A DNA stretch of 64,000 nt, from positions 1 to 64,000 of the forward strand of contig CAWAWS010000033.1 of NCBI GenBank assembly GCA_963785725.1, written 5' to 3'. The position numbers and the translations under genes are program-made. Of this stretch, positions 38,601 through 63,760 are shown piece by piece. The notes beneath the pieces were generated by a model that saw only the letters and a list, made by a program, of their open reading frames with translations, did not search any database and was not told the DNA's origin. This stretch comes from an uncultured delta proteobacterium (GTDB taxonomy: Bacteria > Myxococcota_A > Polyangia > Palsa-1104). Position 1 is the first letter of the stretch. Every line of letters starts with the position of its first letter.

Positions 38601-40451
38601 CACGTGCGCGGGCGCATGCGGCACGGGCGTCAACGCCACCGGCGTGGGCGCGGTCGTCGTGTACGCGACATCGGAGTGCGTCAGGTCGCGGCGCGCGCCG
38701 TCGGCTTGCACGCGCGCCACCGGCCCGTCGACGCGGGCGCCGCCGCCGGTCGCGTCCTTCGCCTCGGTCGCCGCAGCGGCGCTGGCGCCGCGTGCCGCCG
38801 CATCGTCGGTGCGCCCACCGAGCGACGCCGCGACGACTTCGGCGGTCGCGCCGTCGCCGAGCGCCGCGCGTGCCAGCCGACCGCCACCGTCGTGCGCATC
38901 CTCGGCCGCGCGCACCGTCGCCAACAGCAGCATCGGCGGCGCGTCGGGCGCGCGCGTGACGGCCTCGAGCAGCGCCAGCGAATCGGCGTCCGCCCACTGC
39001 AAATCGTCGACGACCAGGACCAGCGGGCGCGACTGACCGAGCTGCGTCAACAGCTCCCGCAGCGCGCCGAACAGCCGTTGCCGCAGCTGCTGCGGATCGA
39101 CGTCGTGCGACGGACGCGGCGCCTGCGCCATCGCCTCCACGCGCCGCAAGACCGGAAAGACCTCGGCCAACAGGCCCGCGCGCTGCGGCAACAGCGCCGC
39201 CGCTTCGCGCTTGGGCAGCTTCGAGAGCCAGCGCGCCAACGCGTCGACGACGCCATCGACCGCTTTGTACGGCACGCTCTCGCGCTCGTAGCAGCGACCT
39301 TGCAAGACGACGGCTTCGGGCACGGCGGCGCGCAGCCGGCGCACGAAGTGGCGCACGAGCGCGCTCTTGCCGACGCCCGATTCGCCGCACACGTGCAGCG
39401 TCGTCGCCACGCCGGTGCGCACCTGCTCGAAGGCCGCCTCCAGCGCCGCCAGCTCGTCGCGGCGACCGACGAACGGCCGTTCGCGCGCGCGATCGCGCAG
39501 GTCGGGCGTGGCGCCCACGTTGCCGCGCGACAGCCGATCGTACAGCTCGCGCGCGCCATGGCGTTGCCGCGGATCCTTGCGCAACAGGCCCGCGCACAGC
39601 GCGTCGAGATCGGCCGGCACTTCGGGCGCCAGCGAGCGCGGCGGCGGCGGCTCGTGCGCCTGTTTTTGCAGCAGCACCTCGAGCGGCGCGCCCGAAAACG
39701 GCACGCCGCCCGTCAACGCTTCGTAGAGGATGACGCCGACCGAATACCAGTCGGCCTCGGGACCGACCTTGCGCGCCGAGGCTTGCTCGGGCGCCATGTA
39801 ATCGGCGGTGCCGACGACGCGAATGTCGCTCTGATCGGGTCGCGCCGCCGACGTGGCCAGACCAAAGTCGAGCAGCACGGCGCGCCCGCTCGGCTCGACG
39901 AGAATGTTGGACGGCTTGATGTCGCGGTGGACGACGCCGGCCGCGTGCAGCGCGGTCACGCCGTGCGCGAGCGACAACAGCGAGGCGCGCAGGCGGGCGA
40001 CGTCGAGCGGAAACGTCGGTCGCAAGAGACGGCCGCTCGGCGGCGGCAAAGTCGCCGCGCGGCGCAGCGGGTCGGCGCTCGGCGTCGGGTCCAGGCGCGG
40101 CTCGGAGACGGCGTGGTCAGACCAATGGTCGCGCGCCGGCCGCACCCAATCGAGCAGATCGACGCCGTCGACGAGCTCCATCGTGAAGAACCACTGCCCC
40201 GCGTCGCAGATGAGCTCGCCGAGCGTGCACAAGTTGGGGTGCGACAGATCTTGGAGCGCGCGAAACTCGTTCTTGAAGCGCAGGATTCCTTCGGCCGACA
40301 ACGTGCGCAGCGTCTTGATGGCGACGCGCGCGCGCCGCTCGCGATCCCAGGCTTCGTAGACGACGCCCATGCCGCCTTCGCCGAGCCGCCGACGCACGTC
40401 GAACCGCCCGGTGCTGCGGAAGTCCGACTCAGCCAAGGGCGCCACGCGCAT
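35679..40451 (-). CDS. Ser/Thr protein kinase with AAA ATPase and TPR-like domains and a long low-complexity insert
   Basis: LGEGGMGVVY, HRDIKPSN, DFG, YMAPE, then GESGVGKS, DDLQWAD and GGHPLF. Confidence 0.92.
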   Translation of the reverse strand: MRVAPLAESDFRSTGRFDVRRRLGEGGMGVVYEAWDRERRARVAIKTLRTLSAEGILRFKNEFRALQDLSHPNLCTLGELICDAGQWFFTMELVDGVDLLDWVRPARDHWSDHAVSEPRLDPTPSADPLRRAATLPPPSGRLLRPTFPLDVARLRASLLSLAHGVTALHAAGVVHRDIKPSNILVEPSGRAVLLDFGLATSAARPDQSDIRVVGTADYMAPEQASARKVGPEADWYSVGVILYEALTGGVPFSGAPLEVLLQKQAHEPPPPRSLAPEVPADLDALCAGLLRKDPRQRHGARELYDRLSRGNVGATPDLRDRARERPFVGRRDELAALEAAFEQVRTGVATTLHVCGESGVGKSALVRHFVRRLRAAVPEAVVLQGRCYERESVPYKAVDGVVDALARWLSKLPKREAAALLPQRAGLLAEVFPVLRRVEAMAQAPRPSHDVDPQQLRQRLFGALRELLTQLGQSRPLVLVVDDLQWADADSLALLEAVTRAPDAPPMLLLATVRAAEDAHDGGGRLARAALGDGATAEVVAASLGGRTDDAAARGASAAAATEAKDATGGGARVDGPVARVQADGARRDLTHSDVAYTTTAPTPVALTPVPHAPAHVATVGAVGAEAPAVAGAATSGVPTADAAAATTTAPTSRAPRGLGEPTDAAASAVASSAEARRGEASARLASPAGQASAAAQPAVGRDTSTALVVETASERTSTASAASVARTSSTSAAAGASGSPTSTASRVARAANAAAAANAAAASNSASAANSAVAANSAAAAANAATAANAAAAANSAGATNSASATNATVAQNAVAASEPAAASGAPGAHSHAPTAPRGVPIFPDAAPADAAADARHDLRTPLASSTTQTIFLARLPPDEARQLAAALLAEQGASSSTASTAGAAIADEAGGHPLFIDELVRHAAATGAEREGPLHLDEALRERVRRLPADAQHVLELVSVAGGPLAQHAAARAADLGFEEFAQQAATLRAANLVRSSGPRPSDLIEPYHDRVRAAVQAGRSPAELRRAHERVALGLESTGRADPEALAAHWQGAGDNDKAAGYAAQAAERASKALAFERAAQLYRQTLLLRPPGSPDVHALQVRLGDALARTGRGSEAARAYLAAAGDAAPADALELRRQASEQLLRSGFVDDGLAALQPVLAAVKLSVPATSRGAFAALAWQRAQLAMRGLRFTRRRAAELPPAQLARVDTAWSLAVGLANIDPVRGAGFGALHLRLALQLGEPSRVARAFAFAACIDAMQGDARAARVDALAGDARRLAEELGDAHAEALALASRAILANSQGRWRACLPQLDAVERLLRERCSGVAWELSTTNLMRAVSLARMGELSELAKNVTASLQEAEQRGDRYAATVLRLGEPNIIWLVQDLPDEARGECEDAIGHWSRSGFHAQHVFHAFSMGQIELYSGDGAGAWERAQALWPLVERSFLLELPLLRAGLLELRGRAALAAAASAPAERKKPLLAEARAAAKRMDKETISYAAAAAAALRAAAAHLDGDDATAQTLLARAALAFDEADMAMHAAVARGRRGRLVGGDEGAALVATMDGWMRRQNVSNPDRFARMILPGF
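38040..38200 (-). repeat. 18-bp coding repeat (N-[AS]-AAAA) in the kinase insert
   Basis: GCATTCGCTGCTGCCGCT / GAATTCG units. Confidence 0.8.
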
Positions 40452-40525
40452 TCAGTGTAACGCGCGGCGTCGGCGTTGCGAAGAGCCGCCGAAGTAGGAG
40501 CCGCCCCCACTCCGCCGCCGAAACG

Positions 40526-40606
40526 ATTGGTTCGACCACCGTCGGAATTGGTTTAACCATTGCGGCGATTGGTTTAACCATTGCGGCGATTGGTTTAACC
40601 ATTGCG
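40526..40606. repeat. 21-bp tandem array carrying the TGGTTTAACCA palindrome (4 units)
   Basis: Motif starts at 40528 (degenerate), 40549, 40570 and 40591. Confidence 0.95.
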
Positions 40607-40654
40607 GGGCGAAGTCGCCCACGAAGCGCCTGCTGCCGCTCGGCAGTGACGGGA

Positions 40655-41443
40655 TCAGCCGCCGCAGAAGAGGACGACCGAGCCGCTGTCGCCGCGCGTC
40701 GACGACCAGCTGGCGTCGGCGCTGCCGTCGAACTTCAGCGTCAGCGTCTCGTGCGAGAGGCCGCCGGTGTGCGTGATGGTGCCGGCGGTCGGGCAGGCGC
40801 TCTTGCAGCGCGCGTAGCCGGCGACGGTCGTCGACCACACGGCGGTGCCAATCGTCGTGGACCAGGCGCCGTCGAGCGTGGCGCATTCGGTGCTGGTGTT
40901 CCAGCTGGCCGTGTAGTCGCCCTTGCGCGTGATGCCGTAGCCGCGCGCGCCGGTGCCGCTACCCTCGCTGGTGACGCTGAGCTGCTTGTTGCCGCCCGAG
41001 ACGCTGTAGACGGCCTGCGAGTCGAAGTCGAGGCTGGCGCCGTTGACGGCGAGCGCGTTGGCGGTGATGGCGGCGTGGATGCCGTCGCTCTGGACGGTGT
41101 AGGTCACGGTGGCGACGCCGCTGACATGCGCGAGGCCCCACGGGCCGCTGCAGTCGGTGAGCGTATAGGTGACGACGTTGCCGGCGGCGGCAGCGACGAC
41201 GCAGCTGGCCGGCTGATACCAGCTCTTGACGCTGGCCGACGCCACCGTCGCCGCGCCGGCGTCCGTGGCTGCGCTCTCGGTGCCGTCGGTGGTGGTGATG
41301 TAGAGCGCGCTCTCGGTCGAGGTCGCGTCGCTGGAGTCGAGGGCGGCGCTGGCGTTACCCACATCGGTGCCGCCGGCGGCGGCGCCGCCGCAGCCGAGCA
41401 AAAGCGTCGTCGAAAGCAGGCCGAGCATGAGGTCGTAGCGCAT
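40655..41443 (-). CDS. Hypothetical lipoprotein
   Basis: LLLGC lipobox and a GGAG RBS. A sigma54-like TGGTCCTCGGGTTGCA lies on the minus strand at 41484-41499. Confidence 0.8.
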   Translation of the reverse strand: MRYDLMLGLLSTTLLLGCGGAAAGGTDVGNASAALDSSDATSTESALYITTTDGTESAATDAGAATVASASVKSWYQPASCVVAAAAGNVVTYTLTDCSGPWGLAHVSGVATVTYTVQSDGIHAAITANALAVNGASLDFDSQAVYSVSGGNKQLSVTSEGSGTGARGYGITRKGDYTASWNTSTECATLDGAWSTTIGTAVWSTTVAGYARCKSACPTAGTITHTGGLSHETLTLKFDGSADASWSSTRGDSGSVVLFCGG

Positions 41444-41869
41444 CGGGAAGGCTCCTCGTCGATTGGTCGACGACCGCGGTGATTGCAACCCGAGGACCAG
41501 CCGAATCGCCCCGCAGCGTAACCGCTTCCCGCGCGCGCCGAGACGCGCCGACTCAGCGCCGAGAGACGCCCCGGCTCAGTAGGCGCACCTTCGGCGATCG
41601 GCGCCGCGCATTGGTTTGACCATTGGGCGCGACGTCGTGGCGGCACATGTCGAGTCGCCACGTACGCCGACGCGAGGCAGGTCGCCGCAAGACCTGCGGC
41701 GGAGGCACGCGTGCGCCCGGTGGGCGCGCGTGCCGGAGCTCCTGCGCGCCGGCCATCGGTGGAGCGCGCACAGGGGTGAATAGCTTATGGCGGGCTCGGT
41801 CTCGAAGCGCCGACGTTCGCCAACAGCAGCAAACGCAGGAGACGAGTAAGCCTTCGCGCGTCGGCAGAG

Positions 41870-42256
41870 TTGGCCAAACCATTCGGCCGTCGTCGCGCTC
41901 GGTCTCGCGGCTAGATCGTGCAGCAGCAGCGGCAGCAGTTAACCATTCGGCCGTCGTCGTTAGATCATGCAGCAGCAATGGTTAACCATTCGGCCGTCGT
42001 CGTTGGATCATGCAGCAGCCAGCAGCAGTTAAACCCGGCCATCGTGGCTAAATCATGCTGCGGCCAGCAGCAGCTAAGCCATTCGCCGTCGTCGTTAATT
42101 ATGCTGCAGCAATGGTTTAACCATTCGGCCGTCGTCGTTAATCATGCTGCAGCAATGGTTTAACCATTCGGTCGTCGTCGTTCATCATGCTGCAGCAATG
42201 GTTTAACCATTCGGTCGTCGTCGTTCATCATGCTGCAGCAATGGTTTAACCATTCG
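41870..42256. repeat. About 43-bp tandem array carrying TGGTTTAACCA, decaying leftwards
   Basis: Unit TGGTTTAACCATTCGGYCGTCGTCGTTMATCATGCTGCAGCAA, with exact motif starts at 42113, 42156, 42199 and 42242. Confidence 0.93.
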
Positions 42257-42277
42257 GGGGCTGACATGCTGGTTCTG

Positions 42278-43402
42278 TCAGCGGTATTTGAGGCCGGTGC
42301 CGGTGTTGAAGACGACCACGCGGTCTTCGCTGCCGATTTCGCCGCGCGCGCGCAGCTCGCCGACCGCGGCCCACGCCGCGCCGCCTTCGGGGCAGACGTC
42401 GACGCCGGTCATCGCCGCGAGCTGCGCCGCCGCCGGCTCGATCGCCGCTTCCTCGACGGCGACCGCCGTGCCGCCGGTGTCGCGAATGGCGCTCAAGCAC
42501 AAGAAGCCGCCGATCGGCGACGGCACACGCAAGCCCCAGGCGCGCGTCGTCGCGTTCGGCCACGGCTCGGTGCGCGTGGCGTTGTCGCGCAGCCCGGCGA
42601 CGACGGGCGCGCACCCCGCCGCCTGAACGCTGACGAGCCGCGGCAGCGTCGGCAAAGGCCAGCCGAGCGCGCGCATTTCGTCGAACGCCTTCCACATGCC
42701 GACGAGGCCGGTGCCGCCACCGGTCGGATAGACGATGACGTCGGGAAGCGCGCCGTCGAGCTGCTCGTAGAGCTCGTAGGCCATCGTCTTCTTGCCCTCG
42801 ACGCGATAGGGCTCCTTGAGCGTCGAAAGGTCAAACCAATCGCGCGGGCCGTGCTCACGCAGCCACTTGCCGGCGTCGGCGATGGTGCCGTCGACGAGCC
42901 GCACCTCGGCGCCGTAGTGGCGACACTCGTCGACGAACGCGCGCGGCGTATCGGACGGCATCACCACCAGCACCGGCAACTTCGCCGCCGCGCCGTAGGC
43001 CGCGAGCGCGCCGGCCGCGTTGCCCGCCGACGGCGCCATGAGCGCTTTGGCGCCTAGCGCGCGCGCCATCGACACCGCCGCTGTCATGCCGCGCGCCTTG
43101 AACGATCCCGTCGGATTGCGCGCTTCGTCCTTGATCCACGTGCGCTCGTCGACGGCAACGAGGGGCGTGAAGCCTTCGCCGAGCGTCACTTCACCGGCGA
43201 CGAGCGGCAGCACCTCGCGATAGCGCCACAGCGACGACACGCGCCCACGGAGCTCGGCCGGCTGCAGCCGCACCTTGGACCAATCGTAGTCGACGCGCAG
43301 TGGCATTCCGCAGCGTTCACAAACGGTCTGCAGCTTCTGCAGCGTGTGCGGCGTCTGGCAGGCGAAACAGGTCAAACCAATCAGAGCTGGGTTCAGATGC
43401 AT
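42278..43402 (-). CDS. thrC: Threonine synthase (PLP-dependent)
   Basis: TLGEGFTP, NPTGSFKARG, EGKKTMAYE, PTGGGTG and NTGTGLKY. Confidence 0.88.
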   Translation of the reverse strand: MHLNPALIGLTCFACQTPHTLQKLQTVCERCGMPLRVDYDWSKVRLQPAELRGRVSSLWRYREVLPLVAGEVTLGEGFTPLVAVDERTWIKDEARNPTGSFKARGMTAAVSMARALGAKALMAPSAGNAAGALAAYGAAAKLPVLVVMPSDTPRAFVDECRHYGAEVRLVDGTIADAGKWLREHGPRDWFDLSTLKEPYRVEGKKTMAYELYEQLDGALPDVIVYPTGGGTGLVGMWKAFDEMRALGWPLPTLPRLVSVQAAGCAPVVAGLRDNATRTEPWPNATTRAWGLRVPSPIGGFLCLSAIRDTGGTAVAVEEAAIEPAAAQLAAMTGVDVCPEGGAAWAAVGELRARGEIGSEDRVVVFNTGTGLKYR

Positions 43403-43687
43403 AGGCCACCGTCGAGCGTCAGGGCGCGTCGCTGGCGCGCATCATAGCTGCGGCGGCGTCGGCGATCGGCGCAAACGCCGAGGCCCGAGCGCGCATGCAG
43501 GTGGGCGGACGTGTGACGCTGTCGCGGCCGTGGCAGTCGACGGCGGCGCCGATCGTCACCAACCGTCGTCCGACGCGGCGCGCGATCCTCGTCATTTGCG
43601 TGACTTGGCCGCGATCGACGCGGCGACGGCGAAACCGGCAGACGAACGCTACACCTCGGTTGCATTTCGCAGCGCGGTTGCGTAAAT

Positions 43688-43705
43688 TGAATGAGCGCTC
43701 ATTCA
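43688..43705. promoter_or_regulatory. Perfect 18-bp palindrome, TetR-type operator
   Basis: TGAATGAGCGCTCATTCA, 17 nt upstream of the acyl-CoA dehydrogenase start. Confidence 0.7.
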
Positions 43706-43722
43706 GCAACCAGGAGGCCGTC

Positions 43723-45587
<1,865 letters not shown>

Positions 45588-45800
45588 CGGCCATGACGGC
45601 AATGGTTTAACCAATTTTACGATTGGTTGAACCATTGCCGTGGCTAGGGCAACACCCGATCCGTTCGCGCAATTCTCCCCCCGCCACTCGCATGTAGCCC
45701 GTCGACGCGGAATCCCGCGCGCGCCGCCGTCGTGCGCACGATTGAAGGCCACTCAGAAGACAATCTCGCGTCGTCGACGGAGCTTCCCGCGCTCCTCGCT

Positions 45801-45903
45801 GCTGTGTGGCACCGAGGACGAGGCCTCGGCTCATAGCCAATGGACACTGCTCGCTGCGCTGTGTGGCACCGAGGGACGACCTCGCCTCATAGCCGATGGA
45901 CCC
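45801..45903. repeat. Imperfect ~57-bp direct repeat (2 copies)
   Basis: GCTGTGTGGCACCGAGG...CTCATAGCCRATGGAC occurs twice. Confidence 0.75.
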
Positions 45904-46123
45904 CGAGCGCGTCGCCGGAGAAGCGCCATCGGCTCGAGCTCGGATCGCGTGCGATAGCGGAACGCGAATTGGTTTAGCCAATACTGAATTGGACAAACCG
46001 TCTTCGCGCGGCTACGCGGCGGGACGCATGCGTTTAGTCGTGGAATCGCGGGAGATCGAGGGCCGGCGAATGGTTTAACCAATCCTGGAATTGGTTAAAC
46101 CATTTCGCCGGACCGTCGGAGGT

Positions 46124-47724
46124 TTAGCGGTTGCCGTCGACTTCGGGAGCGGGAGCGGAGGTCTTGCGGTTGCCCGGCTCGGAGGCGGCATCGGACGTCG
46201 GACGCGCGGGCGCGGCCGGAGCCGCGTGCGAGTTGCCGACGTTCGGCGTGGCATTCACCGGCCGACCGACCGTGTCGTCGCCGCGGTGCTGCTGCGGCTG
46301 TCCGCCGCCGTGCTGATTTCCCGGCTGGCCGCCGCCGGCGTGCTGCTGCCCGGCGTGCTGATTTCCCGGCTGGCCGCCGCCACCGTGCTGACCGCTCGGC
46401 TGGTTTCCGGGCTGACCGCCGACATGCTGACCGCCCTGCTGGCCGCCCGCATCCTGACCGCCTTGCTGGCCGGCCGTGTGCTGGCCGCCCGGCTGGCCGG
46501 CCGCGTGCTGACCGCCTTGCTGGCCGGCCGCGTGCTGGCCGCCGACATGCTGGCCGCCAGCGCCCGGCGCGCCTGCCGCGCCCGGCGCGCCCATCTCGCC
46601 CGGACGGCGCCGCCCGCGCCCGCCGCGACGACGCTTCTTCCGCTCGGCATCGGCGCCCGCCGGCCCAGCCGGCCCGCCGGCCGCGCTCGCGCCGCCGCCG
46701 CCCGGCGCCTGCCCCTCGGGACGCGGCCCACGCGGCGCACCGCCCGGACCACGTCCGCCCGGTCCGCCACCGCCAGGTCCGCCACCGGGACCACGTCCAC
46801 CCGGTCCGCCGCCGCCGGGACCGCGTCCGCCCGGTCCGCCGCCGCCCGGTCCGCGTCCGCCCGGCCCGCCGCCGCCAGGTCCACGTCCGCCGCCCGGTCC
46901 GCCCGGTCCACGACGCTCGCCGCCCGGTCCGCCCGCGCGCTCGCCGCCCGGCCCGCCTGCGCCGCCCGGTCCGCCCGCGTGCTGCCCGCCCGGCCCGCGT
47001 CCGCGGCCGCCGCGATCATTCCAATCGCCGCCGCCCGGCGCGCCGCGCCCCGGCCGCTTCGGCCCGCGCTTCTTGTCGCCGAACTTGCCGCCGCCGCGCC
47101 CGTCACGCCCCGCGTTCGGATCGCGCGTCAACATCCAGCCCGAGCCCGCCGACGGCGTCGGTCCGCCGCGCTCTTCGCGCTCGTCCTTGGGCGCGCCACC
47201 GTCGCTGCGCGCCGCCTCTTTGACGAGCGAGCCGAGCCCGCGCGGCGCCTTCTGCTTGGGCGCGCCGAAGGGGCTCGGCGCTGCCGCCGTCCACCACCGC
47301 CGCCGCCGCCGCCGCGTCCTTCGCGACCGCCGCCGCCGCCGCGTCCTTCGCGACCGCCGCCACGACCGCCGCGAGCGTCACGCGCGCCGCCGCCGCCCGC
47401 TTCCGGCTGCCAATCGACGACGTAGTTGAACTCGCCGATCTTCGTCGCGCCACGCGGCTCGTGATCGTTGGCGAAGACGCGCACGAGGCGCACCTTGGCC
47501 GCGCGATCGCCGACCGCCTGCAGCGCCTCCAGCAACCGCGCCAGGCGATCGCCGGTGACCGCCAGCGCCTCGCCCAGCCGCTCGCTCATTTGCTCATCGG
47601 TCACGCCTTCGCCTTGCAGCTTGGCGCGCGTCTCCGCCGCTTTCTGCACGGACGTACCGCTGAACTCCGTGACCGTACGGTACGGTCCCTTCTTCTCAGT
47701 TTCGACCTGCTTCTCGTCGCTCAT
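46124..47724 (-). CDS. Protein with a small N-terminal domain and a long RGG/GPGG/Gln-His low-complexity tail; one frameshift at ~47290
   Basis: ORFs 47128..47724 and 46124..47134 join through the frame PSPFGAPKQKAPRGLG...GWMLTRDP. The start overlaps the S1 gene stop. Confidence 0.7.
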
Positions 47725-48933
47725 TTCGTCTTCTTCCCGCCTTTGAGCAAATCTGCGAACGTTCCCAAGCTCGACGGCGCCTTTGGCGCATCATTGGTTG
47801 AACCATTGTTGTCATCGCCGGCTTCGATCAGGCCCAGCGACAAACGGCGCTTGTCTTTGTCGACCGCGAGTACCACGACCTCGAGCTGCGCGCCTACCTG
47901 TGTTGCTTCGCGCGCGTGGCGGATCTGCTTGCCGCTTGGCCAGCTCGCTGACGTGCAAGCAGGCCCTCGACGCCGGGCGCCAGCTCGACGAACGCGCCGA
48001 AGGTCTCGAGGCGCACGACCTTGCCGCTGCGCGCGCGCGCCCTCGTAGAACTTCGTCGCCGCGTCGGCCCACGGATCGCTGGCCAGCGACTTCAGCGACA
48101 GCGAAATACGCTCGCCGCGCTTGGGATCGTCGCCCTTCTCCATCTTCAAGATCTGAACTTCGATCTCTTGCCCGACGCTGAGCACGTCTTTCGGATGCGC
48201 CGACGCGGCTGAAAGCCGAGCTCGCTCACGTGCAGCATGCCCTCGACGCCGCCGAGGTCGACGAACGCGCCGTAGTCCTTGATCGTCGTGACTTTGCCGC
48301 GCACGACCGCGCCGGGCTCGAGCGTCTTGCGCGTCTCGACGGCGAGCGTCGCCTGCTCCTCGCTCGAGCAGCGCGCGGCGCGACACGACCATGTTGAGGC
48401 GATTGCCGTTGAGCTCGTAGCGCGTGATGCGGAAGCGCAGCTTCTGGCCGACGTAGCCGACGCGTCCTCGACGTGGCGCACGTCGAGCTGCGAGATCGGG
48501 CAGAACGCGCGCACGCCGGCGACGGTGACTTCGACGCCGCCTTTGTTGACGCCGCTGACGGTGCCTTCGACGGGGACGCCGAGCTGGAACGCCTGCTCGA
48601 GCTCGGCCTTGCCCTCGGCGCCGCGGCCGAGCAGCCGCTTGAGCACGATCGAGCCCGACGGGCCGCCGACCTCGACCACGCGCGCCTCCAGCTCGTCCAT
48701 TGGTTGAACCAATAGCTTGCCGTCAGCGTCGCGCAGCTCGGTCAGATCGATCACGCCGTCGGACTTGGCGCCGATATCGATGAAGGCGGCGCTGCGACCA
48801 ATGCTGATCACTTTGCCACGCACGTGTCGCCGACCTGCGGCTCCTTGCGCTTCTTCTTCGAACGACCGTCATCCGGACCTTCGAATTCGGCCAGTAGTGT
48901 TGCGAAATCTTCTTCGTCGTGTTCGGGCGGCAT
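47721..48933 (-). CDS. S1 RNA-binding domain protein (RpsA-like, about 4 S1 domains; frameshifted)
   Basis: MPPEHDEEDFATLL...VRGKV, RAFCPISQL, DYGAFVDLGGVEGMLHVSEL and C-terminal LGTFADLL. Confidence 0.85.
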
Positions 48934-53700: not shown

Positions 53701-53834
53701 GGCACTCGAATAGCGCCGCATTCGTCCGGAAGTCGGCGGAGAATGGCGCGCCATTTCCGCCAAGCGTTCGTGCGCTCGACGATTGGCGTTCACTGGAATT
53801 GTTCGCGCGCCACTTCGATGGTTCGTGCGGCGAG

Positions 53835-54629
53835 CTATACGGCGATGGGCGCCTTGATCGTCGGATGCGGGTCGTAGCCGTCGAGCCGGAAGTCTTCGTA
53901 CTGGAATTCGAAGATCGATTGCACTGCGGGATTGAGGTGCATGGTCGGCAATGCGCGCGGCGCGCGCGACAATTGCAGCTGCGCCTGCTCGACGTGGTTC
54001 AAATACAAATGCGCGTCACCGAGCGTATGCACGAACTCGCCGGGCTGAAGATTGCAGACTTGCGCCATCATCATCGTCAACAACGCATAAGACGCGATAT
54101 TGAAAGGGACGCCCAAGAAGATGTCGGCGCTCCTTTGATATAATTGGCAGCTGAGCTTTCCATTGGCGACATAGAACTGGAATAGCGAGTGACAAGGCGG
54201 AAGCTTCATCTTGTTTACTTCGGCGACATTCCAGGCACTGACGATCAAGCGCCGCGAATCGGGGTTCGTCTTGATTTGCGCGACGACGTTGCTGATTTGA
54301 TCGATCGTCGTGCCGTCGGCGGCGGGCCAGCTGCGCCATTGATGACCGTAGACGGGACCCAATTCGCCATTGGCGTCGGCCCATTCGTCCCAAATAGAGA
54401 CGCCGCGCTCCTGCAGCCAATGAACGTTGGTGCTGCCGGTCAAGAACCAGAGCAGCTCGTAGACGATCGATTTCATGTGCAGCTTCTTCGTCGTCACGGC
54501 AGGAAAGCCGGCGGCGAGGTCGAAGCGCATCTGGTAACCGAAGACACTGACCGTGCCGGTGCCGGTGCGATCCCCTTTTTTGACGCCGTTGTCGAGGACG
54601 TGGCGCACGAGGTCGAGGTATTGCTTCAT
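53835..54629 (-). CDS. thyA: Thymidylate synthase
   Basis: MKQYLDL, DRTGTGT, ELLWFL, LPPCH and [18 protein letters not shown]. Confidence 0.98.
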
Positions 54630-54669
54630 CGAGTCCAGAAGGTACCAGATCGTGATAGCTTTCGGCACC

Positions 54670-57600
54670 GTGCCATCGATCGCGTATTACGACTTCGACA
54701 AGGTCGAAAAGACGCTCAAGCTCGGCGCCGAGCCGGTTCTGATTGGCCGCGCGATCGAGTGCCAAATCCGCACCGAGGACGCCGTCGTCTCCCGGCGCCA
54801 CGCGCGCATCCTGCGTGAAGCCGACGACTATTGGATCGAGGATTTGGGCAGCCTGAGCGGCGTCTTCATCGGCACCGAGAAGGTCAAGCGCGCCAAAGTC
54901 GTCCCCGGCGAGCTCATCGTCATGGGCAGCCTCGTCGTGCGGCTCGTCGCTGACGGCTCGTCGCAGCCGGGCAGCGATCGCGTCGACGTGACGGCGACGC
55001 CGGCGATGGCGGCGCAGCTGGAGGCGGCGCAAGCGGAGATCGCCGAGCTCAAGAAGGCCAACGAGCGGCTGCGCTCGAACACGACGGCGGCGAGCGGGCT
55101 CGACACCGAGCTGAAGCGCGCGCGCGACGATGCGGCGCGCGAGCGGAAAGTGCGGCAGACCGCGGTCGAGGGCGAGCGCGAGGCAGCCAAGAAGTCGGCG
55201 GCGCTGGCGGCGGAGATCGAGCGGCTGCGCGGCGAGAGCGACAAGCTGCGCGCGGATGTCGACGCGGCCCGAGCGGCGGCGCGCGACGCGCGAGCCGACG
55301 GCGGGTCGGCGGACTCAGCCGAGACGAGCGCGGCGTTGGCGGCGTTGCGCGCCGAGATCGATCGCGCGCACGCCGACGGCGCGACGTTGCGGGCGGAGCT
55401 GGCGGCGGCGCAGGCGGCGAGCGCGACGTGGCAGTCGCAGCTGGCGCCGACGGGCCCGGCCGCCGCCGACCTGGCAGCGGCCCGTGCCAGCGAAAATGCG
55501 CTGCAGGGCGAGCTCGACCGGGCGCGCGCGGAGCTGGCGGCGCTGCACGCGAACGCTGGAAAAGCGGGCGAAGACACCGCCGCGCTGCGCGGCGACGTCG
55601 AGCGCGCGCGGGCGAGCGAGAGCAAGCTCAAAGTCGAGCTCGAGGCGCTGCGCGGCGATGCGAGCGCCACGCAGGCGCAGCTGGCCGACGCGCGGACGGA
55701 CGCCGACGCGTTGCGGACGCAGCTGGCCGCGGCGCAGGTCGATGCGGGCGCGCTCACATCGCAGGTCGAGAAGTCGCAGGGCGAGGCCGACGCGCTACGC
55801 GCCGAGCTGGACAGGACGCAGGCCAACGCCGACGCGTTGCAGACCCGGCTGAACGAGGCGCGCGCGAGCGAGAGCGACCTGCGCGCCGAGCTGGCGCGGG
55901 CGCAAGGCGACGACCGCGCGCTGCATGACGAGCTGGCGGCGGCGCGCGCCGACGCGGCGGCGTTGCAGGCGGCGGCGGAGACGGCGAGCGTCGCGGCGGC
56001 GGCCGTGCAGGCCGAGCTCGGCCAGGCGCACGGCGAGCTGACGCAAGCGCAGGCGAAGGCGAGCGCGTTGCGGGCGGAGCTCGCCGGTGTGCACGCGAGC
56101 GAAGCGGCCGCGCAGGCGGAGCTCGCGACCGCGCAGGCGACGCTGTCGCAGCTGCAAGAACAGCTGGCGCAGGCCACCGGCGAGCTCGAGAAGCGCGCGG
56201 GCGTGGCGGCGGAGAGCGAGCGTCACGCGGCCGAGCTGCAGGGCGAGCTGACCGCGCTGCGCGCCGAGCTGAGCGACGTCCACGGCGAGGAGACGGCGCG
56301 AAAACAGCAGGTCGAGCAGGCACACGCCGAGCTGGCGGCGACGCGCGCCGAGAGCGACGCGCGGTTGCAGGCGTCCGAGCAGCTGACGAGCGAGCGCGAG
56401 GGCTTGCGCGCCGAGCTGCAGGCGGCGCAGGCGGCGTTGACGAGCGCGCGGCAGGAGCTGGCGACGGCGCAGACGGCGGCGGACGAGGCGCGCGCCGATG
56501 CGGCGCGACTGCGGGCGGCGATCGAGCAGACCGACGGCAACGAAGGCACGCTGCGCGCCGAGATCGCGCGGGCGCAGGGCGACGCCGAGGGCTTGCGCGG
56601 CGAGCTGACCCAGGCGCGCGACGAGGCCACGAAGCTGCGCACGCTCGTCGAGCACGGGCAGGGCGAGCGCGACGAGCTGCAGGCGGCGATCGTCGCCAAG
56701 GACGCGGCGGCGGCGCACTTGCGCGGCGAGCTGCAGGCGGCGCAAGCGGCGCACGAGCAGGCGCAAGCGGCGAGCGCGCAGGCGCACGGCGAGCGGGACG
56801 AGCTGCGCGCGGCGCACGAGCAGGCGCAGGCGGCGAACGCGCAGGCCGAGACGGTCGTCGCGGCCGAGCTGGAGCGCGCGCGGGCGACGGTGACTGCGCT
56901 CGAGCAGGAGCGGACGTCGCTGACGACGCAGCTGGCGGAGCTGCACGCGCGGCAAGATGAGGCGGCGCAGGCCCATACGATCGAGCTGACGCAGCTGCGG
57001 ACGCAGGCGGAGGCGAGCGCGAATCAGCTGGCGGAGCTGCAGGCGCAGCAGACGACGCTGACGACCGAGGGCGAGCGGCTGCGCGGCGACGGTGAGCGGC
57101 TGACGCACGAGCTGCAGGCGGCGCGCGAGCAGGCGGCGGCGGAAGCGGCGCAGCGGGCCGAGCTGCAGGCGCGCATCGAGGCGGCGGCCGAGGACGCGCG
57201 GGCGGCCAAAGCGGCGACGGCGACGCTGGAGTCGGCACGTGAGCAGCTGGAGCGCGAGCGTGACACGTTGCATGCGCAGCTGACGCAGTCGGGCGAGCAT
57301 GCAAAGGACGCGGCGCTGCTGGCGGGGCGTGTCGCCGAGGCCGAGCAGCAGGCGAAGATGGCGCGGCAGGAGACGCTGGAGACGGCGGCGCGCGTGCAGA
57401 CGGCCGTCGACGAGGCGCACCGGCTGACGGCCGAGCTGCGCGCGCGCGACGAGCGGCTGCAGGCAATCGACGCCGAGCTGGCGAGCGCGCGGCAGGCGGC
57501 GCAGGCGGAGGTCTCGCGCGCGCATGCGGCCGACGAGCGCGCGCAAGTGGCCGAGCGCGCGCTGGCGGCGCAGGTCGCAGAGGGCGGCGTCGTCGCGCAG

Positions 57601-58795
57601 AAGCTGCAGGCGGTATCGGAGCAGCTGGCGGAGTCGGAGGCGCGGCTGAAGTCGGAGGCGGCGCGCGCGCAGGAGCTGGCGGCGCAGGCGAACGCGGGGC
57701 AGGAGCGCGTGCAGACGTTGGAGCTGCAGCTGAAGACGGCCGAGCAGCAGGCGGCGGACGCGACGACGCAGGCGGCGGACGCGGCGGAGCGGACGAACAA
57801 GCTGGCGGCCGCCGCGGGGACGAGCGGCGAGCAGGCGCGCGCCGTCGAGCAGCAGCTGGAGGCGGCGACGGCGCAGCTGCGGACGGCCGAGGCGCGCGCG
57901 GGCGAGCTCGAGCGCCAGCTGCACGCGGCGCAGGAAGAGACGCGCGCGGCGGCGACATTGGCGACGGAGCGCGAGCGAGAGGTCGCGGCGGCGACGGCGG
58001 CGGCGCGCGCGGCCGGGGCGCAGTCGGCAGACGCGACGGCGCTCGTCGAGCGGTTGGCGGCGGCGGATGCCGAGCTGCACGCGGCGCAGGCGCGGATCGT
58101 CGAGCGCGAGCAGCGGCTGAGCGATTCTCGAGCGGCAAGCAAAGGCGGCGGACGAGCGGGCGTTGGATGCCGAGGGGCGTGCGCACGAGATCTCGGCGCG
58201 GCTGGATGTGGCCGAGAAGCTGGCGAAGGACGCGACGGCACACGTCGAGGTCGAGGCGCGGCGGGCCGACGACGAGCGGGCGATGCGGCGGGCGGCGGAA
58301 GAGGAGCGCGAGCTGCTGCACGATCGCGCGGCGGGGCTGGAGCGCGAATTGGCGGCGGCGACGGCGGCGCACGGCGCCGGCGGGCAATCATCGGCGGCCG
58401 GCGGCCAATCGGCGATCGGCGGATCGGCGGCGGCGGGCCAAGCGGCAGCCAGCGGCCAGTCGGCAGCCAGCGGCCAATCGGCAGCAGGCGCTGGCGGGCA
58501 TGCGCACGGCGCGGGCGCGAACGGCGACCGTGCGGTCCACGGCGGGCCGGGGGCGCACGCGGCGGGTGCGCCGAGCGTCCCGCCCGGCACCATCGATACA
58601 GTCAGCGCCGTCACCGATGCGCTCGCCGAGCTGCGTGCCAGCCTGCGCGCCGCCAGCGACGAGACGGCAGCGATGACGGAGCCCACGACGTCGGTCCAGG
58701 TCGTCTCCGAGGCGCTCAGCCAGGCGACCGAACAGCTCGAGAACGCGCGCGCGCATCTGCGGGCCCTGTCGCAAATCGTCGGCAGCGACCCGTAG
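54670..58795 (+). CDS. FHA-domain protein with a very long coiled coil (about 1370 aa; frameshift at ~58120-58160)
   Basis: FHA motifs IGR...VSRRHA...DLGSLSG followed by >1000 aa of Ala/Glu/Arg/Gln heptads. Continues in ORF 58163..58795. Confidence 0.8.
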
Positions 58796-58991
58796 CCGTC
58801 GCGGCGAGCCAGCGCGCCCGCCGTAACAGCTCGAGACGCGCGCATCTGCGGGCCTATCGCAAATCGTCGGCAGCGACCCGTAGCCGTCGCGGCGAGCCAG
58901 CGCGCCCGCCGCAACGGCTCGAGACGCGCGCGCATCTGTCGCAAATCGTCGGCAGCGACCTGTAGTCGCGGCGAGCCAGCGCGCCCGCCGT
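58742..58991 (+). repeat. Three ~85-bp direct copies of the 3' end of the FHA gene, including its stop codon
   Basis: GCGCGCATCTG...TCGCAAATCGTCGGCAGCGACCYGTAG...GCGGCGAGCCAGCGCGCCCGCCG occurs three times. Confidence 0.9.
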
Positions 58992-59016
58992 TCGTCGCAC
59001 TCGACGGCGCCGGCGC

Positions 59017-59660
59017 AATGGTTAAACCATTTTCACGATTGGTTTAACCATTGTTTGCGCCGCCACGTCCCCGACCGCGTCATGTTTGCGACATCGCGCT
59101 CGCGCGACGAAGCCATCGTTTGCCAACGTCGGACGCTGCCCACCGAGCCATGTCGCGAGCGTCGGCGCCGCGAGACTACGCCACTGTTTGCGGACGCCGG
59201 CGCTCCGAAACCGAGCGATAGCGCCCCCATATTGCCGCTCCGAAACCGGGCCATTGTTTGCGACATCGTGCTCCGATACCGATCCATTGTTTGCGAGCGT
59301 CGGCGCTCCGAGACAAGGTTCGCGATAAACCTTCCGTAACTTTGCCGGTTCAGCCGATGTCCGGCGCGAAGGAGCCGCGGCGCGCGCGGGCACAGCCCGC
59401 CCGCGCGCCGCGGCCAAGCAGCCCGAGCCACTCCGCGGCCGACCAGCCGACCCGTCGCGTCCACACTCCCCGCCGACCAGTCGACACGTCGCTTCCGCAC
59501 TCCCCGCCAACCAGTCGACACGTCGCTTCACGCGCGGCGGATCGATCAGCCGACCAGCCGAGCCGCGGCTTCCGCACTCCGCACCCGACTGAGCCTAGCC
59601 GTGGATTCCACACGCCGCACCGAGCGGCCCAGCCGCGGCCTCCGCACTCCGCACCCGCGC
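59017..59660. repeat. Repeat-rich intergenic region
   Basis: Palindrome doublet at 59019/59040, CCATTGTTTGCGA...GCTCCGA units (~59050-59320) and CTTCCGCACTCC units (~59400-59660). Confidence 0.65.
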
Positions 59661-59676
59661 GTATCCGCGCTGCGCG

Positions 59677-61731
59677 CTATGATCGGCGCCGCAGCGACAG
59701 CGGATTGACGTCTTGCGTCGCGATCCCCAGCTCGCGCAGCAGACGATCGAGCTGTTGCCGCGCGACGGGATGGTAGCCGTCGCGAAAGCGTCGCCACCAG
59801 CCGCCGACACGAGCGCGCGTCGCCGGATTGCGCGCCAAGGCCAAATACAGCGGCCGCAAGAACTTGACGCGACCGCCGCCGCGCTCGCCGGCGCCGTCGA
59901 GCGCAGACTCGACGACGTCGAGTGCCGGCGCGTAGTCGCTCTCGATCGCCAACGGCAACCACGCGGCGCGCACCTCGGCGTTGTCGGTCGCGGTAAGGTT
60001 GAACCATTGATCGAGCGTCGCGCACAACGACGATGGACGCGGCAAACCGTCGAGGTACCAGCGCCATTGCCACGGGTCCCAGGTCGCCGCATCGTCGCGC
60101 GCCGGCAACCTGTCGAGCGCTGACGCCGAGCGGGACGCGCCCAGATCCGTCGTATCGCCCGCCGGAGCCGCGGTATCTGACGATTCCGCTCGCGACGACG
60201 ACGCGCCAACGCTCGCTTCGGTCGATGCAGCCGCACTCGCGTCGGTCGACGCGGTTGCGCGCCCGCCGCCCGACGCAACTGCAGCCCGGTCGCTCGATGC
60301 GTCAATTTGGTCGCCCGATGCGGTCGCACTTCGGTCGCTCGACGTGTCCGCAATTCGGTCGCTCGACGCGGCTGCGGCTCCATCCATTGCCGTCGCAGCA
60401 ACCGCGCTCATCAGTGCGCCGGCCACGCCGGACCCCGTCGCGGACGTGGCGCTGGCCGGCAGTCCCGATTGGTTCAACCATTCGTCGACCCGGAATTCTG
60501 GCGCGGCCGCCGCGACGAAGGCCGCTAGCTCCTCCGACGTGATGACGCGACCGGCGAGATCGACGATCCAAGCGCGTAGCCAACGATCGAAGCGGTCGCG
60601 GCCGAGGTGCTCCTCGAGCGCGCACAAAAAGAGGTAACCCTTTTCATAAGGGACGATCGAGAGCGCATCGTCGGGATCGAGACCTTCGAGGTGCGTCCGC
60701 AGCCGCGTCAGCTCCGGCCGCGCGCCGAACGCGACCAGCGCACGATCGAGCTCGCGACGACCGATCGCCGCTTGCAGTCGTGCCGCCGCTGCGCCCGCGA
60801 GCTGCTCGGCCAACCGACGCTCCGCATACACGGCGAAACCTTCGTTGATCCACAGATGCTCGGCCGACGCCGCGCCGACGAGGTTGCCGAACCAGGCGTG
60901 GCAGAGCTCGTGCGCAACGACGCCGAGCAGCGCGCCATCACGCGTCAGCAGCGACGGCGAGAGGAACGTCAGCTGTGGATTCTCCATGCCGCCGTAGGGA
61001 AACGAGGGCGGCGCGATCCACAGGTCGAAGCGCGGCCAGCGATAGGGACCGAGCAAGGCTTCGGCCGCGTGCAGCGTGCGGCCGATGACGGCGAGCACGC
61101 GCGCCGCCTCGTCGATCCGCGCCGGCGCCGCCCAGACGCGCATGCGCGGCGTCAGGTCGCGCGCGACGAAATCGCCGACCGCCAGCGCCAACAGATAGGG
61201 CGCGATTGGTTCAACCATTTCGTACGTCGTTGTTGCGTCGTCGGCGCTCTCGACGCGCGCGACGAACGCGCCGGCCAGGAGCGTCGTCAGCGCGCGCGGC
61301 ACCGTGACCTCGGCGCGCATCGTCAGCCGGGCCGACGGCGAGTCCGGCAGCGGCACGAGCGTACGCGCCTGAATCGGCTGGCACTGGCTGTAGACCAATT
61401 GGTTTAACCATTGCAGCGCGGTCGCAGTGGGCGAGGTGCGATAGACGATGCGCACCGTATGCGCCCGCCCGCGCTCGACGCGCAATCGGCGGCCCAGGAA
61501 CGGATGCGGCGGACTCAGCTCGAACGGCAGCGCCGCGCCCTCGCCGTCGTCGATGCTGACGATATCGAGCTCGCGCGTGTCTAGGTCGACGAAGTCGCCG
61601 GCGCCGTCGACGCGAAGGCAGGCTTCGGCGGCGAGGGTGCGGCTGGCGAAATCGACGCGCACGCGCCAGTCGAGGTGGCGGACGCGCGGCTGCGCGTCGT
61701 CGAACACGGAGTGCGGATCGGGACGCGGCAC
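59677..61731 (-). CDS. M1 aminopeptidase, leukotriene-A4-hydrolase-like, with an Ala/Ser/Asp repeat insert
   Basis: RPDPHS, SQCQ, FPYGGMENP, HELCH-x18-E (WINEGF) and PYEKG. SSDR repeats at ~60115-60440. Confidence 0.9.
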   Translation of the reverse strand: MPRPDPHSVFDDAQPRVRHLDWRVRVDFASRTLAAEACLRVDGAGDFVDLDTRELDIVSIDDGEGAALPFELSPPHPFLGRRLRVERGRAHTVRIVYRTSPTATALQWLNQLVYSQCQPIQARTLVPLPDSPSARLTMRAEVTVPRALTTLLAGAFVARVESADDATTTYEMVEPIAPYLLALAVGDFVARDLTPRMRVWAAPARIDEAARVLAVIGRTLHAAEALLGPYRWPRFDLWIAPPSFPYGGMENPQLTFLSPSLLTRDGALLGVVAHELCHAWFGNLVGAASAEHLWINEGFAVYAERRLAEQLAGAAAARLQAAIGRRELDRALVAFGARPELTRLRTHLEGLDPDDALSIVPYEKGYLFLCALEEHLGRDRFDRWLRAWIVDLAGRVITSEELAAFVAAAAPEFRVDEWLNQSGLPASATSATGSGVAGALMSAVAATAMDGAAAASSDRIADTSSDRSATASGDQIDASSDRAAVASGGGRATASTDASAAASTEASVGASSSRAESSDTAAPAGDTTDLGASRSASALDRLPARDDAATWDPWQWRWYLDGLPRPSSLCATLDQWFNLTATDNAEVRAAWLPLAIESDYAPALDVVESALDGAGERGGGRVKFLRPLYLALARNPATRARVGGWWRRFRDGYHPVARQQLDRLLRELGIATQDVNPLSLRRRS

Positions 61732-62137
61732 GCCGGCAGTGTAGCGCGCCGCGACCACGCCTGTCGCATCGCCGCGCAGCCGCGATCGTCTTCGAGTGCG
61801 TATGCCGCATCGTCGCGCATTGGCGACCGCTCTCGACCGCGGGCGCCGCATCGTCGCGCGCCGGCGATTCCGCGTGCCAGATGGACGAAACCCGCGTGAT
61901 CAGCTGCATCGAGCAATGGTTAAACCAATCGAGGGAATGGTTTAACCATTGCTCGGCGGGCGGTCGAAAAAGATGCTGACAGCGACGAATCGTCGATCGC
62001 GCGCCGCGATCTGCGACGGCCCATCGATCGCCGGTCACAGCGGGCCGGCCCTGCGGCCGCGCCACCGCCGACCGTGCTGCCGCTACCGATTGCCTGCCGG
62101 ACGAGCAGCGTCTTCCGTTACGCTTATATGTCCTGCG

Positions 62138-63268
62138 ATGGCAACGCGTCGTCAGCACATCTTGCTCGTCCCCGGCTTCTTCGGCTTCGCCAACCTCGGC
62201 GATTTCGCCTATTTCGCGCACGTCCGCGATTTCCTCGTCACGTTCATGCGCCAACGCGACCTCGAGGGCGAAGTGCGCGTCGTGCAGACGTATCCGACCG
62301 CGTCGCTGGCTCGCCGCGCGACGCGCGTCGCCGAGACGGTGGCCGAGCTGCTCGACGACGACGACGGCGACGTTCACCTCATTGGCCACTCGTCGGGCGG
62401 CCTCGACGTGCGCCTCTTCACCGCGCCCAACGTCTCTCTGCCCACGACGCTCGACGTCGACAAATATGCCTGTCGCGTCAAAACCGTCGTCTCGCTCTCG
62501 TCGCCGCACCGCGGCTCGCCGCTGGCGACGTTCCTGTCGAGCGTCCTCGGCGCGCAGCTCTTGCGCGTCATCTCGCTGGTCACGATTTACACGCTGCGCG
62601 GCGGGCGCGTGCCGATCGCCGCCGTGTTTCATCTCGTGCGCCTGTTGTCGCTACCGCGGCTGCCGATGATCGATTCCGGCACGCTGCTCAACAATATCTA
62701 TCGCGATCTCCTGTCCGACTTCTCCCACGATCGCCGCGAAGCGCTCGAGCAGTTCATGATCACCGTCGGCGAGGATCAGGAGCTGCTCGGACAGCTGACA
62801 CCGACGGGGATGGAGACGTTCAACCAATCGACGTTCGATCGTCCCGGCGTGCGTTATGGCTCGGTCGTGACGTGCGCGCGACGGCCGGGCGCGCTGACGG
62901 CGTGGGCGGTCGGCGCGTCACCGCTGCGCCAGACGACGCATTTATTGTTCAACGCGTTTCATCGTCTTACGGCCAATATGTCGTCGATTCCCGTTGGTTT
63001 GACCTATGCGCAGTCGACGGCGTTGACGCGCGCCTACGGCCGACTCCTGGCACCGCGCGACAACGACGGCATGGTCCCGACGCTGTCGCAGGTCTGGGGC
63101 GAAATCATCCACGCGACGTGGGGCGATCACCTCGATGCCATCGGCCACTTCTACTTGCCGTCGCATGTTCCGCCGCACTTCGACTGGCTCAACAGCGGCA
63201 CGCGCTTCTCGATGAGCGACTTCGAGCACATCTGGCGCGACGTCGGCGAATTCTTGGTCGCGAAGTAG
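62138..63268 (+). CDS. Alpha/beta-hydrolase, triacylglycerol lipase-like
   Basis: LVPGFFGF, GHSSGGLD nucleophile elbow, PHRGSPLA, NDGMV and DHLD. Confidence 0.88.
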   Translation: MATRRQHILLVPGFFGFANLGDFAYFAHVRDFLVTFMRQRDLEGEVRVVQTYPTASLARRATRVAETVAELLDDDDGDVHLIGHSSGGLDVRLFTAPNVSLPTTLDVDKYACRVKTVVSLSSPHRGSPLATFLSSVLGAQLLRVISLVTIYTLRGGRVPIAAVFHLVRLLSLPRLPMIDSGTLLNNIYRDLLSDFSHDRREALEQFMITVGEDQELLGQLTPTGMETFNQSTFDRPGVRYGSVVTCARRPGALTAWAVGASPLRQTTHLLFNAFHRLTANMSSIPVGLTYAQSTALTRAYGRLLAPRDNDGMVPTLSQVWGEIIHATWGDHLDAIGHFYLPSHVPPHFDWLNSGTRFSMSDFEHIWRDVGEFLVAK

Positions 63269-63274
63269 CGGGCC

Positions 63275-63760
63275 AATTGGTTAAACCAATGCGTGCACGC
63301 CAATGCGCGCGAGCCGCGACCGCGGCCACGCAGCTGCACGCCGCGTCGTAATCAGCCGAAACGGCCTAACCAATCGCGGGCGTCGTTGAGCCAGTCGCGC
63401 GTGTGGTCAAACCAATCGCTTGCGTCGCAAAACCAGTAGCAGCCTCGTACCAAGCGCGTGTCGTCGTAACCAGTCGCGTGCGTGGTCAACCGGTCGCGTG
63501 CGTGGTCAAACCGGTCGCGTGCGTGGTCAAACCGGTCGCGTGCGTGGTCAAACCGGTCGCGTGGGCGATTAAACCAATCGCGTGCGTGGTCAAACCGGTC
63601 GCGTGCGTGGTCAAACCGGTCGCGTGCGCGGTTAAACCAATCGCGTGCGTCGTAACCAGCCGCGTGGATGTCATCCAGCCGTGTGGATGTCATCCAGCCG
63701 CGTGGATGTCATCCCGCCGCGCTAATGGTTAAACCAATTCAACGAATGGTTAAACCAATC
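63275..63760. repeat. 21-bp tandem array of degenerate palindrome units plus exact copies
   Basis: GCGTGCGTGGTCAAACCGGTC units (~63360-63660). Exact TGGTTAAACCA at 63278, 63726 and 63747. Confidence 0.9.

Follow-up and report, generated by a model that had tools for sequence, protein, structure and literature searches.

The sites of MatP (matS), RacA (ram), Noc and SlmA are region-restricted palindromes, a few dozen of which are spread over hundreds of kilobases of terminus, origin or non-terminus DNA, and their number and region outweigh their position relative to genes. A palindromic motif with the same general properties was found in the window, i.e. the whole 64,000-nucleotide (nt) stretch analysed here, which corresponds to C33:1-64000 of the genome under study (G000; 8.9 Mb in 47 contigs). 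Unlike those sites, whose binding proteins belong to other families, the motif forms a cluster every 0.7-1 kb within patches located mid-arm, and it is the predicted operator of a GntR-type repressor. The feature is real, conserved and evolving, and combines known parts in an arrangement for which we found no description; the literature searched, from which most subscription papers and bioRxiv supplements are missing, yielded no account of operator fields of GntR proteins.

Operators of the FadR subfamily are palindromes with TKGT and ACMA boxes 3 nt apart, and double sites occur in the subfamily (Suvorova et al. 2015, PMC4494728). The system analysed here resembles that of Escherichia coli FadR and PdhR in having a protein with a GntR winged helix-turn-helix and an FCD domain, an AT-rich palindrome and an autoregulatory site (PMC4494728), but differs in its 113-151 sites, which are arranged in four contiguous, lineage-specific fields over unrelated genes, are intragenic in 28% of cases and show no promoter preference. 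Rok of Bacillus subtilis is an H-NS-like xenogeneic silencer that prefers AT-rich DNA; its bridging and Hi-C loops have been demonstrated, and its eight clusters contact one another and act as loop anchors (PMC11841835, PMC13404874, bioRxiv 10.64898/2026.07.20.739713). In both cases a transcription factor with a regulatory and possibly an architectural role is tied to a handful of loci (eight for Rok, four here, where the loci are defined by sites and not by occupancy). Unlike Rok, the present factor is of the GntR/FadR type by Pfam and fold, it has one strict 15-bp site in native GC-rich genes of fields that are syntenic with those of relatives, and its bridging is only predicted. Many palindrome copies grouped in one region are also known from Myxococcus xanthus, where 22 ParB-bound parS copies lie within 3 kb of origin-proximal DNA (PMC3899335), but that sequence, TGTTCCACGTGGAACG, differs from ours, and G000 has separate canonical parS-like sites near dnaA. 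The uptake sequences of Pasteurellaceae and Neisseria accumulate in coding sequence, shape peptides and are largely function-blind (PMC2817400); these occur genome-wide in hundreds to thousands of copies, whereas the present motif, a palindrome linked to a repressor, is restricted to 0.9% of the genome.

The full consensus is the palindromic 15-mer AWTGGTTNAACCAWT (layout AW-TGGT-TNA-ACCA-WT), commonly doubled at 21 bp. Sites were counted as the 11-mer TGGTTNAACCA, exact or with at most one mismatch, or as the 15-mer, strict or with mismatches. All 32 exact TGGTTNAACCA positions listed in an initial annotation of the window were confirmed, and shuffled sequences (n = 100) contained a mean of 0.01 and a maximum of 1, in line with its estimate of well below one per window. 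Allowing one mismatch raises the number to 44, exact copies included, every one within 40528-63757 and none in 1-40 kb, as had been stated; of the one-mismatch copies given in that annotation, the one placed at 59997 starts at 59996. The field it described is indeed regional and bounded, but it is not unique. Genome-wide, 136 of the 137 exact TGGTTNAACCA copies are distributed, far from uniformly, among four fields of 12-33 kb: F1 (C7:356.8-389.5k, 55 exact sites), F2 (C7:421.1-434.7k, 23 exact sites), F3 (C33, window 40528..63757, 32 exact and 12 one-mismatch sites) and F4 (C39:304.4-315.9k, 26 exact sites).

The 15-mer copies with at most one mismatch (n = 151 in G000) are similarly confined, 149 of them lying within 83 kb (0.94% of the genome), one at the edge of F3 and one being a stray. 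The stray is a perfect site at C20:273119 (L009:10119), just beyond the 3′ end of a MATE transporter gene. F3 ends almost where the window does: the last one-mismatch 15-mer is located at C33:64004, and from there up to 79 kb no 15-mer with two or fewer mismatches was detected. The 15-kb flanks of the fields each contain at most one site at up to two mismatches, and partial sites (2-3 mismatches) are 20-190-fold enriched inside the fields. Neighbouring sites are separated by exactly 21 bp in 37 pairs of G000, and some intergenic sites have been multiplied locally as tandem arrays. The coefficient of variation of the gaps between clusters is 0.51-1.25 across the four fields. Among the spaced palindromes with at least 15 copies in G000, this motif and its sub-patterns are the most clustered, and the GC content of the fields (64-75%) resembles that of the genome. 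Depletion of sites outside the fields was considered and rejected, since exact copies (1 observed, 1.3 expected) and one-mismatch copies (49 and 47.5, respectively) occur there at chance level. A structured RNA or terminator was also rejected, as Rfam gave no structured-RNA match in the window and terminator-like hits numbered 10 versus 12.3 expected; promoter-like hits numbered 0. A second, weaker clustered palindrome of G000 (GTGAT-N6-ATCAC / TGATA-N4-TATCA) has 18 copies, seven of them at C33:180-210k and four at C39:660-690k. A single 21-bp doublet of the TGGTTNAACCA motif was observed in an IMG/VR viral contig (L254).

The initial annotation noted the resemblance of the motif to FadR/PdhR-type GntR operators, found no cognate gene in the window and named no binding protein. 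The resemblance proved to be the right lead, and the cognate gene does lie outside the window. GntR domains were detected in four proteins of G000, one of which, encoded on the minus strand within F1 (G000:C7:367773-368570; L002:1776-2570), is most likely the protein in question. It consists of an N-terminal GntR winged helix (Pfam, 1.5e-21) and a C-terminal all-helical FCD/FadR domain (8.2e-6), both matches being past the cut-off; its structure model has a predicted local distance difference test score of 89.7, and the best Foldseek matches are FadR structures (template modelling score about 0.67). A doublet of the motif lies at the gene itself, its second site containing the ATG start codon and encoding MVKP. 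This start-codon doublet is kept in many GntR homologues. It is present at the protein's own gene in G000 and in the congeneric or confamilial genomes G001-G004, G010 and G012, and is not visible in another relative, G011, where the gene is cut by the contig end. The basic C-terminal tail of the protein was considered as a mark of a nucleoid role and rejected, because field-less homologues carry 4-7 K/R in their last 22 residues. F1 also encodes a conserved 293-aa protein without a Pfam match (L002:7276-8154, G000:C7:373276), which is present in every spanning F1 examined.

In distant homologues from the class (38-46% identity) the exact 11-mer was found upstream in six of six cases, one copy each; the genomes of five of the six contain 2-4 motif copies each, the extra copies being inside open reading frames (ORFs). 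Strict 15-mers were counted in 401 genomes of the class: at least four occur in eight (G000-G004, G007, G010 and G012), one in 14 and none in 379. An orthologue of the GntR gene (at least 50% identity) is present in G000-G004 and G010-G012, and so in seven of the eight genomes with at least four sites. Profiling GntR genes against motif presence, which the initial annotation had suggested, thus revealed co-occurrence with two exceptions, i.e. G007 (51% complete), with sites and no gene found, and G011 (86% complete), with the truncated gene and no site found. A further 400 genomes of the phylum, drawn without another member of the family, contained a single doublet in six cases and never more. 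A metagenome scan with the GntR alignment returned chiefly distant GntRs on short contigs; 12 of its 80 loci were examined, and the exact motif was upstream in six, a variant in one and none in five. The start-codon doublet, the upstream site in distant homologues and the co-occurrence across the 401 genomes pair the gene with the motif. AWTGGTTNAACCAWT, with TKGT/ACMA boxes 3 nt apart, is very probably the operator of this F1-encoded FadR-subfamily protein, a prediction made from sequence comparison.

Sites were then related to genes using our own gene calls, helped by relatives. In G000 the sites with at most one mismatch (n = 150) fall into coding sequence (42; 28%), convergent gaps (51), tandem gaps (47) and divergent gaps (10), and 79 of 108 intergenic sites are closer to a stop than to a start. 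Junction occupancy is 14/15 for convergent, 6/14 for divergent, 13/25 for tandem and 1/7 for abutting genes, the convergent excess over divergent gaps having p = 0.005. When G001, G003, G004, G007 and G012 are pooled, convergent (11/33), divergent (11/27) and tandem (25/76) junctions are occupied evenly, and 52 of 126 sites lie in coding sequence. The convergent-gap preference was therefore rejected as a general rule and is peculiar to G000, and the common feature is indifference to promoters. Pfam scanning of 90 proteins from the fields and flanks assigned field genes to tryptophan and coenzyme A (CoA) catabolism and to a fatty-acid-synthesis-type cluster, and also identified aminopeptidases, an S1 protein, kinases, TatA, YggX, a permease, glycosyltransferases, a pseudouridine synthase and a lytic transglycosylase; in G012 they include uvrD and pilus-assembly-type genes. 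Given these positions and unrelated functions, the sites are not placed at promoters of functionally linked operons in the way of a FadR-type regulon. The arrangement does not behave like an ordinary regulon, being promoter-blind, partly within genes and lineage-specific over unrelated genes, and the initial annotation was right to set the regulon aside, as the sites are blind to gene orientation and function.

A broader regulatory role was nevertheless weighed, in which the GntR protein would occupy promoters, gene bodies and gene ends as a regional silencer or roadblock until released by an acyl-CoA-like ligand, any structure being a by-product. The FadR-type fold and the autoregulatory doublet agree with it, as do the acyl-CoA dehydrogenases, enoyl-CoA hydratases, CoA ligase and fatty-acid-synthesis-type cluster in F1-F3; F1 starts in the tryptophan/CoA catabolic cluster. 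In addition, thyA, folA and an FHA gene are skipped by the sites, as though some genes must stay free. However, the unrelated genes listed above are covered as well, intergenic sites tend towards stops, and a growing regulon should recruit scattered promoters, whereas one of the 151 strong sites lies away from the fields. We regard silencing as rather unlikely.

Exact sites located more than 30 nt inside called genes number 34 of 136. Among 102 site-orthologue pairs, the site was absent from the orthologue in 61, common in 29 and partial in four, while eight were gapped and set aside. Examples are REAMVKPFDAI with the site versus REAARAPFDAI without it, and EPKLVKPFRVP versus EPALPRPFRVP. For orthologues without the site, amino acid (aa) identity is 147/338 (0.43) at site codons versus 2484/3331 (0.75) in the flanks, a drop that is partly circular because the pairs were picked for site absence. 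Identity returns to background 8-9 nt from the site centre, and the change is limited to the 15-mer. The sites use rare codons, i.e. TTA (0.8% of Leu) and CCA (2.4% of Pro). Mismatches of the orthologous 15-mers are bimodal (n = 94; 0-2 in 33, 3 in none, 4-6 in seven and 7-11 in 54), and the in-gene sites replaced codons through about 7-11 substitutions without an indel. The weight of this comparison lies in the missing indels, the recovery of identity close to the site and the bimodality. Whatever acts here, selection or drive, is strong enough to have overwritten conserved codons in favour of a regional DNA signal.

Drive could take the form of self-propagating sites, copied by short-patch gene conversion or template switching while the protein holds DNA close, as local molecular drive with little or no benefit. 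The bimodal mismatches, hard to produce stepwise, speak for it, together with the tandem arrays (local amplification) and a more than tenfold difference in motif copy number among congeners. On the other side, the change stops at the edge of the recognition sequence, 30 doublets contain 27 distinct linkers and 10 of 19,909 pairs of site flanks are similar. The enrichment of partial sites in the fields is what stepwise gain or decay predicts, and the relatives compared are so distant that intermediates would be missed. The 90 proteins scanned include no known conversion machinery. Self-propagation is distinctly improbable in our view.

The unrelated linkers and flanks also exclude a mobile element. 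The initial annotation had named an assembly artefact or the ends of repetitive extragenic palindromic (REP) elements or miniature inverted-repeat transposable elements (MITEs) as ways in which its proposal could fail. The assembly does have single-base frameshift errors and some sites lie in tandem repeats, yet sites occur at orthologous loci in seven other genomes, in frame within genes and without indels. Fields of this kind recur in independent genomes from the genus and the family, and the 90 proteins scanned include no transposase. These observations refute a mobile repeat or artefact, which we consider scarcely credible.

Comparison with relatives showed that fields are acquired blockwise. 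F1 is common to G000-G004, G007 and G012, while G010 has the autoregulatory doublet only within the 20 kb examined; F2 and F3 also occur, more sparsely, in congeners. F4 has 31 sites with two or fewer mismatches in G000, and no sites were found in the 108 kb around its orthologues in G001-G004 and G012. In a five-protein tree G000 is sister to G001-G004, with G010 and G012 outside, which makes a single gain of F4 in G000 the simpler reading. Conversely, G012 carries 17 sites in a 31-kb stretch of its own; the corresponding 24 kb of G000 (C7:436-460k) is devoid of sites, as is the G012 stretch with three F3 genes. Doublet spacing in G012 is 20 bp in 18 of 21 pairs, and 21 bp in the other genomes examined, with one 36-bp exception. 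These comparisons imply a fixed dimer-dimer geometry and fast site turnover. Two doublets among pilus-assembly-type (T2SSE/T2SSF/FHA) genes of G012 (L080, G012:C462:19-23k) possibly mark the start of a new field that only this genome has. Relative to G002, G003 and G007, G000 shows a reciprocal exchange with breaks at C7 about 391k, the distal edge of F1, and C36 about 10-19k, and a site of G007 lies close to the corresponding junction.

Many near-perfect sites far from promoters could also serve as a titration sink, i.e. as decoys that buffer or store the repressor and shape its dose response. Decoys, however, need neither contiguity nor new distant fields, and with free intergenic space genome-wide they need no codon rewriting. 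A sink is accordingly very unlikely.

The initial annotation proposed that the sites organise or segregate the region, and correctly stated that their sequence is not that of parS. Three canonical parS-like sites are located at C19:123.7k in G000, 9 kb from dnaA (C19:114k), and a dif-like site is conserved (G000 C26:217120, G002 C4:469612), both contigs being without exact sites. None of the four fields lies at oriC/parS or dif, and the sites are not centred on dif as in a matS/MatP terminus macrodomain. In G002 (9 contigs) dnaA lies at C2:650k, with F1 (1.62-1.65 Mb) and F3 (1.71-1.72 Mb) about 1 Mb away; the F4 genes lie 0.39 Mb from dnaA. A contig order derived from synteny with G000 over sampled stretches, with one weak junction, would put F2 on the other arm, about 1.2 Mb from dnaA. 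C33:76-96k of G000 gave only scattered matches in G002. The fields lie in the middle of the chromosome arms and correspond to neither centromere nor terminus. The sole ParB-domain hit of G000 is at C6:333k (G002, C3 about 200k). This gene maps a long way from both dnaA and the three parS-like sites, an unusual arrangement for parAB. An SMC gene is present on C26, and compensation by the fields for a lost SMC was rejected, the SMC hinge being found in 14 of 15 family genomes.

A centromere- or terminus-like segregation locus of the parS or matS type would fit the dense palindromes in bounded regions and the position of the G002 fields about 1.0-1.2 Mb from dnaA, apparently on both arms. Against this stand the absence of ParB-like or ParA genes from the fields, the single ParB hit on another contig, the parS-like sites close to dnaA, the dif-like site megabases away, and F4, which is private to G000 and at a different distance from dnaA. 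Segregation, for which the parS-like sites, ParB and SMC located elsewhere and the distance of the fields from dnaA and dif leave no support, is highly improbable; the protein may organise the region, as proposed.

We propose instead that a local repressor has been co-opted to coat or bridge domains sequence-specifically, in the manner of the Rok clusters of B. subtilis, and give this proposal, drawn from the site pattern, about an even chance of being correct. In distant relatives, representing the starting state, the protein would be an autorepressor acting locally through one operator, which in one Polyangia family would have been multiplied into dense, sharply bounded 12-33-kb fields. One dimer would bind each palindrome, dimer pairs probably being cooperative on the 20/21-bp doublets, and the bound protein would coat the field every 0.7-1 kb, compacting it or bridging fields as a cluster or loop anchor. 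Site number and neighbourhood would then outweigh exact position, so new sites would pay off only beside old ones, which would explain the contiguous fields, the sharp edges and the codon rewriting. The FadR-like ligand domain could, speculatively, make the structure metabolite-switchable. We put forward more tentatively, as a possibility that is rather less probable than its negation, that a local FadR-type repressor is turning into a sequence-programmed chromosome-architecture protein, its operator nucleating and then spreading in bounded, heterochromatin-like fields that overwrite codons, are anchored together, in G002 some 1 Mb from the origin on either arm, and are possibly under metabolite control; in that case spreading may occur via short-patch copying of the site.

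Several observations weigh against domain coating or bridging. The protein resembles an ordinary two-domain FadR-type regulator without an extra bridging domain, and its basic tail is shared by homologues without fields. The retained autoregulatory doublet and the several acyl-CoA enzymes across F1-F3 indicate that a regulatory role persists. ParB, canonical parS-like sites and SMC are all present, and the convergent-gap excess of G000 is absent in relatives. Finally, the number of sites ranges from 5 to 113 per genome, G011 has the gene with no site found, and half of the family has neither, so the function is dispensable or young.

Within the window, F3 (site groups are given without strand) begins with four sites of 21-bp period at 40528..40607, the first with one mismatch, flanked by a lipoprotein-like ORF and a site-free Ser/Thr kinase-AAA gene (35679-40451). 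A 43-bp tandem array of 7.3 copies (41939..42257), comprising four perfect sites and decayed copies, lies downstream of a gene for a pyridoxal phosphate-dependent (PALP) enzyme. Two 21-bp doublets (45603/45624 and 46071/46092) and a near site at 45970 occupy the convergent gap past an acyl-CoA dehydrogenase gene (45601..46104). The S1-domain protein gene contains in-gene sites (47795..48711, minus strand), of which that at 48701 is absent, without an indel, from the G002 and G003 orthologues. The region 49251..49444 holds a single site on a stop codon and a 21-bp doublet in a convergent gap. An M1 aminopeptidase gene (49435..52146, minus strand) has near sites at 50583 and 51775 and an in-gene site at 51005, which encodes EWLNH where relatives read EWTHH/EWSHN. 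Downstream of folA, 52201..52847 contains five exact and three near sites, partly as 46-48-bp tandem repeats.

The following site-free gap (52846..59018) spans folA, thyA and a 1431-aa FHA/coiled-coil gene, and a gap over thyA and folA recurs in G002. Further sites are a 21-bp doublet in a convergent gap (59017..59052), in-gene sites at 60470, 61207 and 61400 of a second M1 aminopeptidase gene (59677..61767, minus strand) and a 21-bp doublet in a divergent gap (61915..61950). The sites of the second aminopeptidase gene are partly common to G002-G004, while the G012 stretch with this gene is site-free. The right edge (63276..63759), in a convergent gap, consists of a single site, a decayed array of 21-bp period (63368-63653) and a final doublet. 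The acyl-CoA dehydrogenase (43699-45587) and S1-domain (47404-48826) genes are interrupted by single-base frameshifts; these are absent from contigs of four independent DNA runs compared over 44000-63900, which were short and came from relatives, and are therefore probably assembly errors. Downstream of the S1-domain gene, a Gly/Pro/Arg/Gln-rich low-complexity frame with nested 15-, 27- and 45-bp repeats (46124-47400) is possibly the disordered tail of the S1-domain protein. The site-free 1431-aa protein (54670-58965), divergent from thyA, has an N-terminal FHA domain, a long coiled coil and a repetitive tail.

The genomes analysed form a graded natural series: a one-operator repressor with 2-4 motif copies stands at one end, genomes with 5-31 strict sites lie in between, and 113 strict sites in four fields mark the other end. 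As the protein is named and a 15-bp site is defined, it can be tested directly, in vitro and in a laboratory host, how a transcription factor turns into a nucleoid organiser. Codons have been rewritten for a regional signal, which is otherwise documented for genome-wide uptake sequences. If the bridging is true, bacterial chromosome engineering would gain a loop anchor that is compact, programmable and possibly switchable by a ligand. The findings suggest that in this group of soil myxobacteria a regulator has been repurposed to coat or fold patches of the chromosome rather than to switch single genes.

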